DNA of 54,912 bases from an uncultured Thermotogae bacterium (GTDB lineage Bacteria > Bipolaricaulota > Bipolaricaulia > M55B111). Position 1 is the first letter of the stretch. The number at the start of each line of letters is the position of its first letter. The stretch is taken from contig CAZTJJ010000006.1 of the NCBI GenBank assembly GCA_964614065.1, forward strand, positions 1-54,912, written 5' to 3'. The notes under the pieces were generated by a model that saw only the letters and a program-made list of their open reading frames with translations, was not told where the DNA came from and made no database searches. A program made the translations under genes and the position numbers. Below, one piece after another: positions 7,712-54,348 of this stretch.

Positions 7712-8162
7712 TGCTTACACCTCTTTACGTATTAATTTTGAACCTAAAGATTTTCACAACTGTCAAAATTAACCTTGACCAGATAAAAACCGATCACCTA
7801 AGCAACCTGCCGGTACGTTGGCTGATCGAAAAGCTTAATTACTTAATCCGTGCGATTTACTCTCGCGCCTGTAATGTCTAAGTCCGAAGGCTAGGCTACT
7901 TCACCTACGTAACATCACTTATACACCTTACCAAGTGGGTTAAAACTAACTGGATAATCCAACTCCCATTCGCGACATCTACTCAGCACTCAACTCTGGC
8001 TTGCAAAATCTACCTACGGTTTACCTGACCGTTCTATCAACACAGTAGAACCGCTCAGATTAGATACTAATAGTACAGCTCAGGTACAATATGTTCAAGA
8101 TTGGCGAAGTAGGGAGAGAACCGGGTTGTAACTTTACACGGAGGAATAAACCTCCCATTGAC

Positions 8163-8168: not shown

Positions 8169-8351
8169 CCAGCATCCCTACCATACTAAATAAACTAAAC
8201 AATGACTGTGACGGTTGAAACAACCATCAGTTCAGCTGAAGATTAAACGTTTGAAATGCAACCACAAATAGATGGAAGTCAATTATCCCACCTCAAGGGG
8301 TGGAGCTTGTAGAAAAACATTGGAATAGAAGGCTGAATTTGAAAAAAGGGA

Positions 8352-8411
8352 ATTGACCCAGCCGATTCATCCCCAGGGCAAGCCCTGGGGGTTCTCAGCT
8401 ATTATTGGTAA
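8352..8411 (+). repeat. Intergenic modular element, copy A: ATTGACCCAGC, then 8-bp GC hairpin CCCCAGGG-CAAG-CCCTGGGG, then GTTCTCAGCTATTATTGGTAA
   Basis: The hairpin at 8371-8390 and the flanking module resemble the copies at 24439, 35421, 42355 and 53191. Oriented toward folP. Confidence 0.5.
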
Positions 8412-24423: not shown

Positions 24424-24438
24424 TTTGCTCCTTAGAAA

Positions 24439-24470
24439 GTCAAGAACCCCGCCCCAAGTGACGGGGCTTG
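24439..24470 (+). repeat. Intergenic modular element, copy B (hairpin module only): AGTCAAGAACCCCGCCCCAAGTGACGGGGCTTG
   Basis: Reverse complement matches the hairpin module of the copies at 42497 and 53205. Lies 16 nt after the lrp stop, oriented with lrp and crp. Confidence 0.5.
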
Positions 24471-24532
24471 AAAAAGACACATGAACAACAGAACCTTTAG
24501 GTTAATAACCGGAAATTGATCCAGGAGTAGTT

Positions 24533-25207
24533 ATGGAAGATCTCGGCAATGTCAAGATTTTTAGTGACCTCGATGAAAGAAGTCTTGGTCAATTACAGGA
24601 CGAAATCAAGTACATTGAATACGGCCCGGAGGAAATAATATTTCAAGAAGGAGCTCCGTCCTTTGGCTTTTATATAATTCATGAGGGGTTAGTAAAGCTG
24701 GTGAAGCGAACATTGAGGGGTAAGAGACAGATCCTGAAAATGGCTGGCCCAGGTGAATTTATCGGCGAAACTACGCTATTCGACAAGGGGGCTCACATTG
24801 CTTTCGCTAAAACACTCATAGATACCAAGGTAGGTTTCATCGAGAGAGGCAACTTTTTCTACTTTTTAGAAAATCACACTGAAATCGTATTTAGAATATT
24901 CGCTAAAATGTCCGAAGAACTGAAGGCATTTCAAAGCAAATTAGCGGAGAGATCGTATAACAGTAGTAAAGAAAGGTTGGCCAGATTTATCCTAAGACTA
25001 GGGAACGAAGGAATAGAACTTTCCCGATCGGAGCTTGCAGAACTAGCTGGGGTGTCCTCTAAAACGGCAATAAGAACCCTCGGTGAACTCGAAGATCGCG
25101 GTTTTATTAACATGAAGGACCGAAAAATTGAGATTCTCGATGAAGAAAGTATTTCCAAACTTGCGACAAAACTCCCTATTAGTCTAGACAAAAATCTTAT
25201 TATCTAA
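24533..25207 (+). CDS. Crp/Fnr family transcriptional regulator
   Basis: cNMP-binding beta-barrel (GEFIGETTLFD) plus a C-terminal HTH; no Fnr Cys cluster. Confidence 0.85.
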   Translation: MEDLGNVKIFSDLDERSLGQLQDEIKYIEYGPEEIIFQEGAPSFGFYIIHEGLVKLVKRTLRGKRQILKMAGPGEFIGETTLFDKGAHIAFAKTLIDTKVGFIERGNFFYFLENHTEIVFRIFAKMSEELKAFQSKLAERSYNSSKERLARFILRLGNEGIELSRSELAELAGVSSKTAIRTLGELEDRGFINMKDRKIEILDEESISKLATKLPISLDKNLII

Positions 25208-35420: not shown

Positions 35421-35530
35421 CTACCAAAATTAGCCGAGAGTGCTGGGTCAATCTTTCGTTTTTCAAACCCGAGGTTATTTTTACCATTGTCTCTTTATAT
35501 GCCCCACCCGGTGGGCTGGGTTCTTGAACT
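35421..35530 (-). repeat. Intergenic modular element, copy C: hairpin module, ~48-nt variable region, ATTGACCCAGC, then CTCTCGGCTAATTTTGGTAG (read on minus strand)
   Basis: Lies between the rpsT stop (35536) and the secF start (35389). Shares both the hairpin+TTCTTGA(A)CT module and the CTCGGC-A-TTTTGGTA module with the other copies. Confidence 0.5.
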
Positions 35531-40656: not shown

Positions 40657-41838
40657 TCACCACTGCTCGATGGCGAGTTTAATTCGATCAACTGCATCCT
40701 CTAGCACGACCACACTCGGCAAATAAGCGATCCTGAGATAACCGGGCATACCAAAAGCACTGCCCGGAATGGTGACCACGCCGCTTTTTTCAAGAAGCAC
40801 TCGAGTAAACTGAGAATCGCCCGACTCATCAAGACCAACCTCCAAAAGCAAATCCCTTACATCAGGGAACAGATAAAAGGCTCCCGGAGGTATCGGGCAA
40901 TCAATCCCCGAGACCTTGTTTAATTCCTGGGCTAGAAGATCGCGTTTTCTTTTAAACTCATGTCGAATGCTTTCCGACAATGACAACTCATGAGCGAATG
41001 CAGCCTGTGCGGCCTTCTGAGAGATAGAAGACGGGCTTGAGGTAAAGTGACTCTGAATTTTCTCCAACTCAGTCATGTACTTGGCTCTACCAATTACGTA
41101 ACCCACTCTCCATCCAGTCATAGCAAAAATCTTGGAAGTGGATCCAACCGTGAAACCCTTTGTATAACCTGATGATACCTGAGTCCAAAATCTATCTTGC
41201 TGATAAGTAAAACCGTCATAACACTCATCACTGATTACGAACAGATCTTCGGACCGCGCCAAATTGATAATTTCTTCACCTTGCTCCGTATTGTAAACTC
41301 CCCCAGTCGGATTTCCCGGGCTGTTAATCAAAATTACCTTGGTCCGAGGAGTCACCTTCTCCTCTATTTCAGAAACAGAAGGCAGATAATGATTTTGGGG
41401 TGCACCTCTTGCAAACACGGGTTCGCCCCTTGATAGCCGAACCTGCGCTGGATAGCTCGGATAGTACGGTCGAGGAAGGATAACCTGATCACCTTCCTCA
41501 AGCAAAAGTTGCATTATCTCAAATAAACCTGCCTTTGCTCCAGCAGTTACTAAAATAGAGTCATCGGAAGGATCGAGCCCAAAGACTTTCTGATACCTTT
41601 GCCCAATGGCCTCACGTAATTTAATAATACCACCGGCTTCAGTATAACCAGTAAAACCAGTTTTTATCGCATCGATTCCTGCAGCTCTAGCGACCTTGGG
41701 TTCCTGGAAACTGGGGTCTCCAGCTCCCAGATCAATTACGTCCTGCCCATCTCTCATCAATTGCTTGGCTCTGTCGTTAATCTCTTGTGTCTCTGACTTT
41801 CTTAAAGATTCTATGCGACCCGCCAGCAAGGAAATCAC
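40657..41838 (-). CDS. Class I/II PLP-dependent aminotransferase (AspC/TyrB-like)
   Basis: PLP-lysine region SKIFAMTGWRVGY. Last gene of the aromatic operon (overlaps the aroQ stop by 4 nt), so a probable aromatic-amino-acid aminotransferase. Confidence 0.85.
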   Translation of the reverse strand: MISLLAGRIESLRKSETQEINDRAKQLMRDGQDVIDLGAGDPSFQEPKVARAAGIDAIKTGFTGYTEAGGIIKLREAIGQRYQKVFGLDPSDDSILVTAGAKAGLFEIMQLLLEEGDQVILPRPYYPSYPAQVRLSRGEPVFARGAPQNHYLPSVSEIEEKVTPRTKVILINSPGNPTGGVYNTEQGEEIINLARSEDLFVISDECYDGFTYQQDRFWTQVSSGYTKGFTVGSTSKIFAMTGWRVGYVIGRAKYMTELEKIQSHFTSSPSSISQKAAQAAFAHELSLSESIRHEFKRKRDLLAQELNKVSGIDCPIPPGAFYLFPDVRDLLLEVGLDESGDSQFTRVLLEKSGVVTIPGSAFGMPGYLRIAYLPSVVVLEDAVDRIKLAIEQW

Positions 41839-42269
41839 TCCTCTGTTATATGTGAAGCCAATCGGCGTAAACCGATAGCATAGCCCTCTAGCCCTTGCCC
41901 GGATATCTGCTGGACAGCAACCGGTTCTACAACTGATTTCCGTCGAAAATCCTCCCGGTTCTCTATATCGGAAATATGTACCTCGATCACCGGCAAGTTT
42001 ATCGCCTCCAGGGCATCCCTTAAACTATAGCTATAGTGAGCCAAAGCGCCAGGATTAATAAGTACACCCTTTGCTACTTTTCTGTGCTCATGTAGAAAAT
42101 CAATTATCTTTCCCTCGTGATTTGACTGAAAGAAAATTAACTGCTCATCAAGTTCTTTCGCCCGTGCGGATAACTTCTTTTCAAGAAAAGAAAGACCCTT
42201 TGACCCATAAATCTCCGGCTTTCTCTCACCTAATAGATTAAGATTGGGTCCGTTAACAACTAAGATCAT
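41835..42269 (-). CDS. aroQ: Type II 3-dehydroquinate dehydratase
   Basis: MILVVNGPNLNLLGERKPEIYG is canonical for AroQ; 144 aa. Confidence 0.9.
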   Translation of the reverse strand: MILVVNGPNLNLLGERKPEIYGSKGLSFLEKKLSARAKELDEQLIFFQSNHEGKIIDFLHEHRKVAKGVLINPGALAHYSYSLRDALEAINLPVIEVHISDIENREDFRRKSVVEPVAVQQISGQGLEGYAIGLRRLASHITEE

Positions 42270-42354
42270 AATCTCACCTCAATGGTGTGATTCCCTTCCT
42301 TATGAACATCTCCTAGGAAAGAATTGTTAATTAAATAAATAGCTTATGCTTCAA

Positions 42355-42530
42355 CCAAAACTTGCCGAGGAAGCCCTCCAGCACCCAATTAGCCCTGCTC
42401 ATATGGTCTAGGAGCACATACAATATTAGTTCCGAATTGACTACTGGGTCTTATTGTTGTAAAAGAACAACGTCCGTGGTTAAATCTGTTTTTCTACAAG
42501 CCCCGTTCCTTGGGGCGGGGCTCTTGACTG
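42355..42530 (-). repeat. Intergenic modular element, copy D, split by a ~120-bp insertion flanked by a duplicated AAGCCC
   Basis: Left module ACCAAAACTTGCCGAGGAAGCCC (42355-42377). Right module CAAGCCCCGTTCCTTGGGGCGGGGCTCTTGACTG (42497-42530). The same two modules are contiguous at 53191-53240. Confidence 0.5.
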
Positions 42531-42579
42531 GATTTGTTCATCAATTGGATTCAGCTCAGTAAGTTAGACAAAACTCTTT

Positions 42580-43677
42580 CTAGAACTGCAAATTCATGAT
42601 GAAATCAAGGGCTCCACCTATTTCAGATCTGTCCACGGGTTCTACAGATACGTCTTCTCCTATCTCGTTTACTATGACCGAATAGATAGTTTCCTCTCGG
42701 CTTTTTTTATCCTGACTTACGTATTCTAACAGGCGTCCTTGGGTAAAATCTTGTGGTATCTTTGGCAAGCTAATGCTCGTCAATGAGTCTACAACTTCCT
42801 GGAGAGTATCCTCAGATAAATTGCCTCTCCGGTAGGAAATCCATAACTCACCCACCATTCCCCAAATTACCGCTTCACCGTGCCGCATACTGCCATAACC
42901 TAGCCCCGCTTCGATCCCGTGACCCAGCGTATGGCCAAAATTGAGTACTTTTCGCAAACCGCGGTCCTTCTCGTCCCGGGTGACTATTTCTGTTTTTATT
43001 CCACAACATCGAGCTATAACTCCCTCCAGCTCTTGACAATCTTTCAATTCTTGGAACACCTGAATATTGCTTACTACCCTATTTAACAAATCCTTATCCC
43101 AAATGATACCGTATTTGAGTATCTCGCCAAGACCTGATCGGACGTCCCTGTCCGATAGCGTAGATAAGATTTCAGGATCGATCAAGACCAACCGGGGTTG
43201 ATAAAATGTGCCCACGAGATTCTTTCCTTCAGATAGATTAACCCCGGTTTTACCTCCTACACTACTGTCCACTTGGGCCAATAGAGTTGTCGGTACCTGC
43301 ACATAGCGGAGACCTCGAAGGAAAGTCGAAGCAACAAAGCCTGCCAAGTCCCCGACGACGCCTCCTCCAAATGCAACAACCACCGAATCGCGACTTAAAT
43401 TCAATTTGGCAAGATCCTGATACAGTTTTTTTGCAACCGAAATAGATTTTGACTCCTCGCCCGGAGATACTACCAATTTCACCATCCCGATATCAGTTAA
43501 CCCCAAAGAGTTGACCAGCTTCTCGCCATACAGATCATCAACATGTTCATCCGTGATAGCGACAACCTGCCTGGCGGATAAATAACTTTCGAGCCTCTCG
43601 CCCACAACAATTAAGGAACCTTCCTCGATTAGAATCGGGTAACTGCATGAATCAAGATCGACTTCAATTTTTTTCAT
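42580..43677 (-). CDS. aroB: 3-dehydroquinate synthase
   Basis: GGGVVGDLAGF NAD-binding motif and metal-binding His residues; 365 aa. Confidence 0.9.
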   Translation of the reverse strand: MKKIEVDLDSCSYPILIEEGSLIVVGERLESYLSARQVVAITDEHVDDLYGEKLVNSLGLTDIGMVKLVVSPGEESKSISVAKKLYQDLAKLNLSRDSVVVAFGGGVVGDLAGFVASTFLRGLRYVQVPTTLLAQVDSSVGGKTGVNLSEGKNLVGTFYQPRLVLIDPEILSTLSDRDVRSGLGEILKYGIIWDKDLLNRVVSNIQVFQELKDCQELEGVIARCCGIKTEIVTRDEKDRGLRKVLNFGHTLGHGIEAGLGYGSMRHGEAVIWGMVGELWISYRRGNLSEDTLQEVVDSLTSISLPKIPQDFTQGRLLEYVSQDKKSREETIYSVIVNEIGEDVSVEPVDRSEIGGALDFIMNLQF

Positions 43678-52601: not shown

Positions 52602-53045
52602 TCAGTGCCATTGTCCCACGGTTAGATCGTAACTCAGCAGTTCTTCAGCGGTAAAGAAAAGGCCTATCTCTCTTTCCGCCGACTCTTTTGAATCCGAACC
52701 GTGAATTAAATTTTTGGTAAGGTCCAACCCGTAATCTCCCCGAATTGTCCCTGGATCGGCTTCGAAAGGATTGGTTGCCCCCATCATCTTTCTCAACACG
52801 CTTATCGCTTGTTTACCTTCAACAACCATGGCAACAATCGGGCTGGACGTAATAAAACGAAACAGATCGGAAAAGAACTCTTTATCCAAATGCTCCGCGT
52901 AATGTTCCCTGGCTAGTTCTTCCTCCACCTCCATCATCTTCATGCCCACTATCTTTAGACCCTTTTTTTCAATTCTATCTATCAATTGCCCCACCAACCC
53001 TCGTTGTATCGCATCAGGTTTCAACAATACCAAACTGCGTTCCAT
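52602..53045 (-). CDS. ndk: Nucleoside diphosphate kinase
   Basis: MERSLVLLKPDAIQRGLVG and the active-site NxxHGSD (LIHGSDS); 147 aa. Confidence 0.95.
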   Translation of the reverse strand: MERSLVLLKPDAIQRGLVGQLIDRIEKKGLKIVGMKMMEVEEELAREHYAEHLDKEFFSDLFRFITSSPIVAMVVEGKQAISVLRKMMGATNPFEADPGTIRGDYGLDLTKNLIHGSDSKESAEREIGLFFTAEELLSYDLTVGQWH

Positions 53046-53190
53046 CGATGAAAAACCTCCATTTCAAGTTATGTAACTCTCTGAATTGAGACTAACATCT
53101 AATACAGAAGTCAAGACAAATTTGCTAATAATGATTCTTCTCAATATTTTCATCCAACGAATCTTGTTAGCGAAAAAAACAAACTTTTTA

Positions 53191-53240
53191 CCAAAACTTG
53201 CCGAGAAAGCCCCGTCCCTTGGGGCGGGGTTCTTGACTCA
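53191..53240 (-). repeat. Intergenic modular element, copy E (archetype, contiguous): AGTCAAGAA-[GC hairpin CCCCGCCCCAAGGGACGGGGC]-TTTCTCGGCAAGTTTTGG (read on minus strand)
   Basis: Lies between the dprA stop (53248) and the ndk start (53045). Hairpin is 10 bp with a CTTG tetraloop. Both modules match the other four copies. Confidence 0.55.
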
Positions 53241-53247
53241 ATCCAAT

Positions 53248-54348
53248 TTATTTTACTTTTGCCCACAAATTACCTTCCAATCTTTCCACTAAGTCGTTCA
53301 TCTCTAACTGAAAAATTATATGGGATAACCTAGCCGGTGGAAAGTCAGCTTGCTCCACGATATCGTTGAAATGTATTGGATCGTAATCGAGAAGGGAGTA
53401 AACCTTACTTTGTTCCTCACCAAGATCACCTACCCTCTCCTGGTGATCCTCCTCCTCAAGCGGCAGGGCCAATTGCAAATCGCGAAACTCTTCGATAACG
53501 TCAGAAGAATCTTCTACAAGCTTCGCTCCATCTTTAATCAGTTGATGGGTTCCTTTCATAGACGGACGTCTGACATCCCCGGGGACAGCGAACACCTCTC
53601 TTCCTTGTTCTAAGCCATTTCTTGCAGTGATTAGCGCACCGCTCTTCTCGGGTGCTTCAACGACGATCACACCGCGGGAAAGTCCACTTATAATTCGATT
53701 TCTTTGCGGAAAGGACCACCTAGTAGGTCCTTGATCAAGGGGGAACTCAGTAAACACGGCTCCCTGCTCAGCTATTCGTCGCATCAAATTCGCATTACTC
53801 TGCGGGTATGGATTTCCAAAACCGGTCCCCATTACAGCCACGGTTCTTCCCCCAGCGTTAATTGCAGCCTGGTGGCTAAAAGTGTCGATACCCAAAGCCA
53901 TACCGCTAACCACTGTAAATCCGGCCTTCACTAACTCGCTGGACAGTTTTTCAGCCACTCGTTTCCCGTAGTTAGAATACTTTCTGGTACCCACCATGGC
54001 AATACTCAATTGATCAAGATTTTCGTATTCTCCTTTACAGTAAAGAAGAGGTGGGGGTTTATCGATAGCCCTTAAAGACTCAGGATAACCGTCATCTTCC
54101 AGGCTGAGGAATTGTAGGCCAAGATCCTCAGACCGACGAAGTTCTTTGTCAACTTCATCAGGGTCCCTAGCTTCACAGAATTCAGCCGCTACATCTTCAA
54201 ACCCGTTGATATTTCTGATATCCGACTCAGAGGCTTTCCAGATTGACTCCACATTTGGAAAGCAACTCAACAAAATATGAAATCGGCGTGGAGTTATTGC
54301 CGAATTCATATTGATTCCAACCCAGTACCTCCTTGTGCTTCCATCCAT
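53248..54348 (-). CDS. dprA: DNA-processing protein DprA (Smf)
   Basis: Rossmann-like DprA core (VVSGMALGIDTFSHQAAINAGGRTVAVMGTG) plus C-terminal winged-helix region; 366 aa. Confidence 0.9.
   Translation of the reverse strand: MDGSTRRYWVGINMNSAITPRRFHILLSCFPNVESIWKASESDIRNINGFEDVAAEFCEARDPDEVDKELRRSEDLGLQFLSLEDDGYPESLRAIDKPPPLLYCKGEYENLDQLSIAMVGTRKYSNYGKRVAEKLSSELVKAGFTVVSGMALGIDTFSHQAAINAGGRTVAVMGTGFGNPYPQSNANLMRRIAEQGAVFTEFPLDQGPTRWSFPQRNRIISGLSRGVIVVEAPEKSGALITARNGLEQGREVFAVPGDVRRPSMKGTHQLIKDGAKLVEDSSDVIEEFRDLQLALPLEEEDHQERVGDLGEEQSKVYSLLDYDPIHFNDIVEQADFPPARLSHIIFQLEMNDLVERLEGNLWAKVK

Follow-up and report, generated by a model that had tools for sequence, protein, structure and literature searches.

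In an uncultured bacterium labelled Thermotogae and placed by GTDB in the Bipolaricaulota, two short sequence modules lie about 120 nt apart in the spacer between aroB and aroQ, and the same two modules stand contiguously between dprA and ndk. The locus raises the question of whether DNA entered the aro-spacer copy or was lost from the other one. A first-pass annotation of the window, meaning the whole 54,912-nt stretch analysed here (assembly GCA_964614065.1, contig CAZTJJ010000006.1, positions 1 to 54,912), had proposed a miniature insertion with a 6-bp target-site duplication, AAGCCC, or alternatively a deletion between short repeats in the contiguous copy. Sequence comparison indicates that the supposed 120-bp insertion is the retained interior of a larger structured mobile repeat, with no insertion between the modules. 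Read in the same way, the contiguous short copy is more heavily deleted than the aro-spacer copy, a case of ordinary repeat decay.

Two modules and the segment between them

On the plus strand, ACCAAAACTTGCCGAGGAAGCCC lies at 42354-42376 and CAAGCCCCGTTCCTTGGGGCGGGGCTCTTGACT at 42497-42529, and the uninterrupted module string is found at 53190-53238. The split and contiguous strings and their coordinates in the annotation were borne out; the AAGCCC pair stands at 42371-42376 and 42498-42503, and the segment that separates the two copies measures 121 nt (42377-42497). The 16-mer ACCAAAACTTGCCGAG occurs exactly twice in the window and a third time, with two mismatches, at 35423, far above the 0.04 occurrences expected, so that the likeness of the modules is not due to chance. 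Given that the neighbouring aroB, aroQ, aminotransferase, dprA and ndk genes are all on the minus strand, the element is best read on that strand, where the aro-spacer copy runs AGTCAAGAG-[hairpin CCCCG..CGGGG]-CTTG ... CTCGGCAAGTTTTGGT.

A structured repeat family in halophilic Bipolaricaulota

A scan of one genome per species with the hairpin 19-mer GTCAAGARCCCCGCCCCAA returned 61 loci, nearly all from metagenome-assembled genomes (MAGs) of Candidatus Bipolaricaulota/Acetothermia from hypersaline sites, some of them labelled "uncultured Thermotogae", with a few chance matches in other phyla. The second module (CTCGGCAAGTTTTGGT or its variant CTCAGCTATTATTGGT) begins 230-250 nt downstream of the first in the majority of complete copies. 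At least 17 copies are present in the MAG JAIPHJ01, and many contigs break inside the element, including those of the window's own species in the aroB-aroQ spacer. The lengths of the 31 distinct complete copies (fetched loci are denoted by L numbers) are distributed as follows:

48 nt: 2 copies (window and L058)
130 and 147 nt: 1 copy each
175 nt: 3 copies, all at the aroB-aroQ site (window/L003, L001, L002)
225-265 nt: 21 copies, the modal, full-size class
312-373 nt: 3 copies

Lengths of 225-373 nt are thus found in 24 of the 31, and the split arrangement in 29, in keeping with the contiguous copy as the derived state, an outcome that the annotation had allowed for. What the annotation called modules are the two termini of a structured intergenic repeat, about 245-265 nt long and present in many copies, in halophilic Candidatus Bipolaricaulota.

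In sense orientation the element opens with (A)GTCAAGAA and the 5' hairpin CCCCG..CGGGG, closed by CAAG/CTTG, followed by a second hairpin and a long central stem with a variable apex; it closes with the 3' hairpin domain GCCGA-TTCCT-CCCC[hairpin]GGGG-CTTCC-TCGGC and then AAGTTTTGGT. Three helices were obtained from the alignment of the 21 full-size copies and RNAalifold:

Helix 1: 5' hairpin, CAAG..CCCCG/CGGGG..CTTG
Helix 2: central stem, CCAGCAG.TCAATCG/CGATTGA.CTGCTGG, with a hypervariable apex
Helix 3: 3' hairpin domain, GCCGA-TTCCT-CCCCAGGGC/GCCCTGGGG-CTTCC-TCGGC

Compensatory changes are present: six sequences have GCTGA/TCAGC in place of GCCGA/TCGGC, and the central and 3' stems show several swaps. 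GUC/GAC pairs are invariant in 21/21 sequences. When the minimum-free-energy fold of one copy was projected onto the alignment, 86.8% of cells were paired, against 32-45% with slid partners, and double-sided changes were found in 39 cells, against 18 ± 3 in shuffles (none of 500 reached 39). A full copy folds at -92.1 kcal/mol (z = -6.4). The 5' hairpin, CCCCG..CGGGGCTT, begins 8 nt from one end, the 3' hairpin, CCCC..GGGGCTT, finishes 20 nt from the other, and both covary. The motif GGGGCTT follows both end hairpins and is kept after the 3' hairpin in the 21 full-size copies.

The aro-spacer copy

The 176-nt copy in the aro spacer aligns with the 21 full-size copies, and with the nhmmer family profile 42434-42528 corresponds to profile positions 1-94 (82 bits). 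Compared pairwise with the 226-nt copy of L030, it is collinear save for a single 53-nt gap, where the linker is missing together with the loop and 5' strand of the 3' hairpin. It matches the full-size copies from its first base onwards, the second hairpin and the two arms of the central stem included, until ..GCTGGA jumps to GGGCTTCCTCGGC; the deletion junction is GCTGGA/GGGCTT (here and below, a slash within a junction or site marks the boundary). The parts of this copy are:

42354-42529, minus strand: internally deleted 176-nt copy of the Bipolaricaulota HEARO-like repeat, with the same sense strand as aroB and aroQ
42497-42529, minus strand: element 5' end, AGTCAAGAG and then the hairpin CCCCG..CGGGG closed by CAAG/CTTG (consensus helix; the weak Rfam HEARO alignment begins here at model position 1)
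42498-42503, no strand: second AAGCCC, the reverse complement of GGGCTT on the 3' side of the 5' hairpin (conserved alignment columns)
42377-42496, minus strand: supposed 120-bp insertion, read as retained interior with the second hairpin region and the arms and apex of the long central stem (column-for-column alignment with interiors of the L030, L044 and L015 type)
42371-42376, no strand: first AAGCCC, the reverse complement of GGGCTT as found after the 3' hairpin, here deleted (GGGGCTT is kept there in the 21 full-size copies)
42354-42376, minus strand: element 3' tail, GGGCTTCCTCGGCAAGTTTTGGT, the preceding 3' hairpin being deleted (alignments and junction GCTGGA/GGGCTT)

The fold of the 176-nt copy is no better than that of shuffled sequence (z = -0.8). 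Since one end hairpin has been lost and no stable fold is left, the aroB-aroQ copy is presumably inert now. The annotation had described the segment as lacking an ORF (open reading frame). A mechanical ORF of 66 aa with a TTG start (42362-42562, plus strand) does overlap it, so that the statement holds only in the sense that nothing supports coding.

An extra stem-loop of about 75 nt (CAGCACTTACTTGG...CCAGTAAGTGCTG) is shared by L035 (967-1279) and L037 (3862-4200), two copies of different subfamilies in one MAG. It sits between GGGGCTTC and AGGGCTTCC near the 3' end, with a duplicated GGGCTTC on its two sides. Here the pattern that the annotation believed it saw in the aro spacer does exist, and it suggests exchange or nested insertion among copies. 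Elsewhere, in L040 (2701-3086) and L063 (7140-7194), from two MAGs, the 5' hairpin is broken at the same point of the loop (CCCCAAG/TCTGCTATG..) by a sequence that is unrelated to the element and opens an ORF (MKLGNYSS..GLDVAKKK..). It looks like another insertion sequence that targets the hairpin of the repeat; Pfam gave no match for the 77-aa ORF fragment in L040, and a guess at IS110 was not confirmed.

Other copies in the window

The family profile search of the window found five copies, three of which (8278-8409, 24438-24528 and 35423-35529) the annotation had missed. Besides the aro-spacer copy, they are:

8278-8409, plus strand: 132-nt copy upstream of folP, both end hairpins retained, long central stem deleted between CCAGC repeats (nhmmer, sequence)
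24438-24528, plus strand: fragment of about 90 nt, 5' part only, between AsnC/Lrp-type and Crp-type genes (nhmmer, profile positions 1-88, 37.7 bits)
35423-35529, minus strand: 107-nt copy in the rpsT-secF spacer, in which the 5' part of about 92 nt, up to GACCCAGCACTC, is joined straight to TCGGCTAATTTTGGT (sequence, alignment)
53190-53238, minus strand: 49-nt contiguous copy in the dprA-ndk spacer, the whole interior gone, 5' hairpin fused to 3' tail at the common GGGGCTT

All five are internally deleted, each with a different junction, and are independent internal-deletion relics. The three that retain both ends align as deletion variants of the 21 full-size copies. The 49-nt copy consists of the first 31 nt and the last 17 nt of the element, joined at GGGGCTT, and the covariance model of the 3' domain, R1, aligns it as a hairpin chimera (30.5 bits); the same model scores 61 bits on 8347-8409, in the copy upstream of folP. 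In the 107-nt copy, ..CAGCACTC is joined to TCGGC... Such deletions would arise by slippage or recombination at the short repeats beside the hairpins. The alternative given in the annotation, a contiguous copy made by deletion between short repeats, has therefore proved right for the fusion at GGGGCTT, and the 176-nt copy is itself a deletion derivative too.

At 6090-6138 of L058, from another MAG, lies a further 49-nt fusion of hairpin and tail; it shares its junction (GGGGCTTTCTCGGC) with the window copy and has different flanks. The recurrence reflects either repetition of the same deletion or a mobile mini-form. At 24438-24532 the 5' fragment ends at GATCCAGGAGTAGTT-ATG, and the diverged GACCCAGCAC motif reads as the AGGAG ribosome-binding site of a Crp-family gene (24533-25207), which may represent co-option or coincidence.

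Insertion sites in sister species

Orthologous loci were found through homologues of AroQ, Ndk and FolP and the contigs that encode them; a metagenome scan with a chorismate synthase query returned only distant relatives (32-68% identity). The genes concerned, assigned with Pfam, and the inserted spacer are:

40657-41838, minus strand: aminotransferase
41835-42269, minus strand: aroQ
42280-42586, minus strand: 307-nt lineage-specific insertion, made up of about 55 nt unique, the 176-nt element and 84 nt unique
42580-43677, minus strand: aroB
52602-53045, minus strand: ndk
53248-54348, minus strand: dprA

Synteny of the aro operon extends to a sister species (L089 and L090, with AroQ 83% identical) and to L091 and L092, which come from two more distant MAGs; in all four loci aroB and aroQ overlap by 4 nt or lie 1 nt apart. 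With blastn, window positions 42280-42586 have no counterpart in the sister-species contigs L089 and L090. Because of this, and because the two genes overlap or abut in the relatives, the whole 307-nt spacer is taken to be a lineage-specific insertion. In the comparison of orthologous spacers that the annotation had proposed, relatives have no spacer with the split arrangement, the spacer as a whole being particular to this lineage. The insertion brought a new aroB stop codon, changing the C-terminus of AroB from ..QQEKL-stop to ..QF-stop, and its 84-nt unique flank brought a new ribosome-binding site for aroQ (GAGGTGAGATT-ATG). Expression of aroQ would then proceed by read-through transcription, using the new ribosome-binding site in the inserted DNA.

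Between dprA and ndk, the sister species (L093-L095) has a 153-nt spacer that lacks the 49-nt copy; the sister reads ..GGACTC/GGTAGAAAG, and the window ..GGATTG/AGTCAAG...AAGTTTT/GGTAAAAAG. The 132-nt copy between rplI and folP is likewise missing in the sister locus L177, which reads ..GACGTGAT/AATATCTAA, against ..TTATTGGT/AATATCTAA in the window; at the empty site ..GACGTGAT stands directly before AATATC. The rpsT-secF copy is common to the sister species, whose contig L089 ends within the same hairpin at the same site.

About 30 pairs of flanks were compared, and none showed a target-site duplication. GTCAAG is preceded by A in 55/72 flanks, and at the other edge TTGGT is followed by R in 34/38 and then by A in 31/38, so that GGT-R-A is kept at the 3' edge. 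This conservation and the two sister-species sites suggest G(G/A)T-R-A, read on the sense strand, as the motif beside which insertion takes place.

The rplI-folP region holds further differences. A segment of about 229 nt (7841-8069), with TAA on both sides and unique in the fetched DNA, is missing in the sister (L177) and is a second lineage-specific insertion near the copy at 8278-8409. The blocks at 7750-7840 and 8070-8115 (for example TTCACAACTGTCAAAATTAACCTTGACCAGATAAAAACCGATCACCTAA and TAATAGTACAGCTCAGGTACAATATGTTCAAGATTGGCGAAG) are near-identical in window and sister, more so than the adjacent coding DNA with its identity of about 83-86%, and may be an unannotated small RNA or leader; a permissive Rfam search of this intergenic region gave no match. 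Other matches to known RNAs are a truncated tRNA gene at the window start, of which the 3' part is present (positions 1-56; Rfam tRNA, 31.6 bits), and, in L048 (1263-1393, minus strand), tandem c-di-GMP-I-type riboswitch matches of 53.9 and 34.8 bits, just below gathering scores, about 140 nt from an element copy.

Probable relation to HEARO and IscB

At gathering thresholds, Rfam returned no match in the region of the aro spacer, riboswitches included. In permissive searches HEARO (RF02033) was the sole family matched, with 21.5 bits for the window copy and 24.7-29.7 bits for full-size copies (best E = 1.4e-4, in a 321-nt search), and HEARO model position 1 coincided with element position 1 in all five matches. 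It has been reported that the IscB omega-RNA is bounded by the transposon end, that RF02033 lacks the downstream structure, that 15 bits serves as a liberal cut-off for degraded HEAROs, and that omega-RNAs are often present in gene-less palindrome-associated transposable elements (PATEs) (bioRxiv 10.1101/2023.03.14.532601). Only 65% of IscB 5' untranslated regions match RF02033 (PMC9755519).

Two bona fide HEARO loci from plasmids, fetched by BLAST with the model consensus, served as calibration. In Oceanisphaera pA (L179) an annotated iscB lies after the HEARO, which scores 153.8 bits, and in Planktothrix agardhii p1 (L180) an ORF-less HEARO scores 151 bits. Both share with the Bipolaricaulota family the start GTCAA-NNN-CCC[hairpin]GGGCTTG, and TTGACCAG before the stem. 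The 5' boundary of HEARO, GUCAA with an outer helix around a GC-rich hairpin and then UGACCAG and a long stem, recurs in the family, as does the closing TTGACC(C)AG motif ahead of the long stem. Moreover, in both HEARO loci another hairpin domain is built like the 3' domain of the family, right after the iscB stop in L179 and at the end of the ORF-less element in L180. The pattern common to this second end is GCNGA-TTCCT-CCC[hairpin]GG-YWTCC-TCNGC with a short tail, including GATTCCTCCC..TCCTC:

Oceanisphaera 3' hairpin domain: GCGGA-TTCCT-CCCTGCCC..CAAGG-TATCC-TCCGC-CAAAAAGTGATGA
Planktothrix 3' hairpin domain: CTCCA-TTCCT-CCCACCGCTAAAGCGGGGG-TATCC-TGGAG-GGCGGACAGATGA
Bipolaricaulota family 3' hairpin domain: GCCGA-TTCCT-CCCC[hairpin]GGGG-CTTCC-TCGGC-AAGTTTTGGT(GA)

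The tails of the two HEARO loci end in G(A/G)TGA. A covariance model built from the 3' domain of the family picks out precisely these domains in both loci, albeit with weak scores. The two end hairpins are also alike within an element, being identical in Planktothrix and of the form CCCC..GGGGCTT at both ends in the Bipolaricaulota family. HEARO and the family are both multi-copy and intergenic and have ORF-less forms, and neither shows a target duplication, for the family in about 30 flank pairs. Unlike real HEAROs, which score about 150 bits, the family reaches 21-30 bits, and the middle of its RNA is different, the second hairpin being larger and the single, very long central stem having a hypervariable apex; its copies show neither an adjacent iscB nor an orientation bias, and its hosts are an uncultured halophilic Bipolaricaulota clade.

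The Oceanisphaera element is flanked by a group II intron domain match and a maturase fragment (L179, 2351-2426 and 4037-4312), and the locus could be a pile-up of mobile elements.

Searches for protein partners, confined to the fetched loci, were negative. With a real IscB as query, tblastn found no match in any fetched locus; the ORFs downstream of copies are unrelated housekeeping genes. A TnpA probe found nothing real over about 0.7 Mb of fetched loci. The sole TnpA lead, in L030, turned out to be a HAD-type hydrolase. Scans of viral contigs gave 0 matches for the hairpin pattern and 78 chance matches for the 3' motif, none of which fitted the family profile.

Proposed origin and alternative explanations

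The family is probably a divergent, ORF-less derivative of IscB-type IS200/IS605 elements, of which the aro-spacer copy would be a dead relic. It would consist of a HEARO-like omega-RNA scaffold between two transposon-end hairpins, with the iscB gene missing. Elements of this kind would move as single-stranded DNA through a Y1 transposase (TnpA) supplied in trans, and insertion would occur without target duplication beside a short motif, apparently G(G/A)T-R-A on the sense strand. The 176-nt copy is the element minus 53 nt (linker and 3' hairpin), and the 49-nt dprA-ndk copy the element minus everything between the GGGGCTT after the 5' hairpin and the GGGGCTT after the 3' hairpin. Evidence for mobility comes from the flanks, where neither target-site duplications nor inverted repeats were seen and GGT-R-A is kept at one edge, from the copies missing in the sister species at aroB-aroQ, dprA-ndk and folP, and from the contig breaks at the element. 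As a whole, the combination of deletion relics and an IscB-type derivative is in our judgement likely.

Several observations weigh against this interpretation. The HEARO scores, at 21-30 bits, are far under the gathering score of 83, the covariance-model matches on the 3' domains of real HEAROs are statistically weak over the 65 kb searched (13.6 bits with E = 0.59 in one locus; 8.8 bits with E = 9.3 in the other), and the sequence-only nhmmer profile of the family finds no match in the real HEARO loci. No iscB, isrB or tnpA was found beside any of about 45 copies or in the fetched Bipolaricaulota DNA, although the missing adjacent iscB alone does not exclude relatedness, since ORF-less HEAROs such as that of L180 exist. 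IscB elements have been reported to be orientation-biased, whereas the family is unbiased with respect to the upstream gene (22 same, 21 opposite), so that the co-orientation seen in the window is not general; G-U pairs and C-A mismatches are about equally frequent and give no functional strand. The element boundaries depend on two partly clean empty sites, one of them imperfect. The unique flanks of 55 and 84 nt in the aro spacer match nothing in any fetched DNA, and simple transposition does not explain them. Finally, three window copies are missing in the sister species and yet already shortened, which implies fast decay or entry in short form.

The last of these points would be explained if the repeats were new, highly divergent stand-alone omega-RNA genes that are still mobile, with their own 5' flank as guide for an IscB or IsrB encoded elsewhere and with those size variants in which the two ends are retained, among them the 132-nt copy (8278-8409), as mini-elements mobilisable in trans; insertions younger than the sister split could then be short already. 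We regard this as unlikely. Somewhat less unlikely, and still doubtful, is a lineage-specific structured intergenic repeat or multi-copy small-RNA gene (REP/BIME- or ERIC-like, or driven by another transposase or by recombination) that has nothing to do with IscB or IS200/IS605, the likeness to HEARO being a convergence of GC-rich hairpins. The HEARO scores of 21-30 bits against 83, the iscB and tnpA genes not found in the fetched DNA, the failure of the sequence profile to reach real HEAROs and the unseen orientation bias all speak for it; however, HEARO is the sole Rfam family matched and is always aligned from the first base of the element, specific motifs at both ends are common to two real HEAROs (GTCAA..GGGCTTG, TTGACCAG and GATTCCTCCC..TCCTC), and a unit of about 245 nt with three helices is unlike REP units of 20-40 nt.

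A regulatory function, which the annotation had considered in the form of an internal promoter or regulatory RNA, appears very improbable, as does a terminator acting on aroQ and the aminotransferase gene. The element does occupy the aroB-aroQ spacer in sense orientation, and aroQ takes its ribosome-binding site from the inserted DNA, but no sigma-70-like promoter or intrinsic terminator is predicted on the sense strand, the 176-nt copy folds no better than shuffled sequence (z = -0.8), and Rfam scans of the region gave no riboswitch match. Besides, the spacer is missing in all relatives examined, where aroB and aroQ overlap or abut, and the same element adjoins unrelated genes elsewhere. Hardly any credence is left for a miniature mobile element of about 120 bp inserted in a contiguous 49-nt element with duplication of AAGCCC as its target site. 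It is true that AAGCCC flanks the 121-nt segment and that the contiguous string exists at 53190-53238. Nevertheless, dozens of other loci hold full-size copies whose interiors are collinear with the segment, the family conserves GGGCTT as a motif behind each of the two hairpins, and the contiguous form is rare (2/31 distinct complete copies). The segment has no terminal inverted repeats, in agreement with the annotation, and it does not occur independently, contrary to what would be expected of a repeat in its own right: nowhere else in the window is it repeated on its own.

Implications

The locus is a warning about repeats whose copies have common ends and differ in length: the shorter copy may have been derived from the longer, and a 6-mer found twice can belong to the family's own sequence instead of marking an insertion. 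A previously unannotated structured repeat of about 245 nt, with many copies per genome, has been defined in an uncultured phylum; its ends match those of IscB/HEARO elements, although it almost escapes the Rfam model. Confirmation of the relationship would widen the range of omega-RNA scaffolds and gene-less guide-RNA elements known so far. In hypersaline Bipolaricaulota the repeat can also serve as a marker, both of assembly breaks and for typing strains. At the aro spacer, a translationally coupled aroB-aroQ pair has been split by an insertion associated with a mobile element, and the operon was not destroyed.

Comparison with known systems

Enterobacterial ERIC and neisserial Correia elements have long and short forms that differ by internal segments while both ends are kept, and these can be misread as insertion into the short form. 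Copies of the Bipolaricaulota family likewise vary by internal blocks with their ends kept. Terminal inverted repeats are a feature of both ERIC and Correia elements, and insertion of the latter duplicates the target; the family shows neither. Another comparable group is the PATEs, gene-less IS200/IS605 derivatives mobilised by TnpA in trans: both they and the Bipolaricaulota family are short, have no ORF, carry subterminal hairpins at both ends and a conserved short motif at one edge, and show neither inverted repeats nor target duplications, the latter judged for the family from about 30 flank pairs. Presence and absence between sister species, as known for PATEs, is also seen here, with copies missing at aroB-aroQ, dprA-ndk and rplI-folP and common at rpsT-secF. 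Compared with PATEs, the cleavage sites and target motif of the Bipolaricaulota family derive from only two sister-species comparisons, and its transposase partner is putative. The ORF-less HEARO of Planktothrix agardhii p1, in which the iscB gene is missing as it is from the Bipolaricaulota repeat, offers a comparable arrangement among IscB-type elements.

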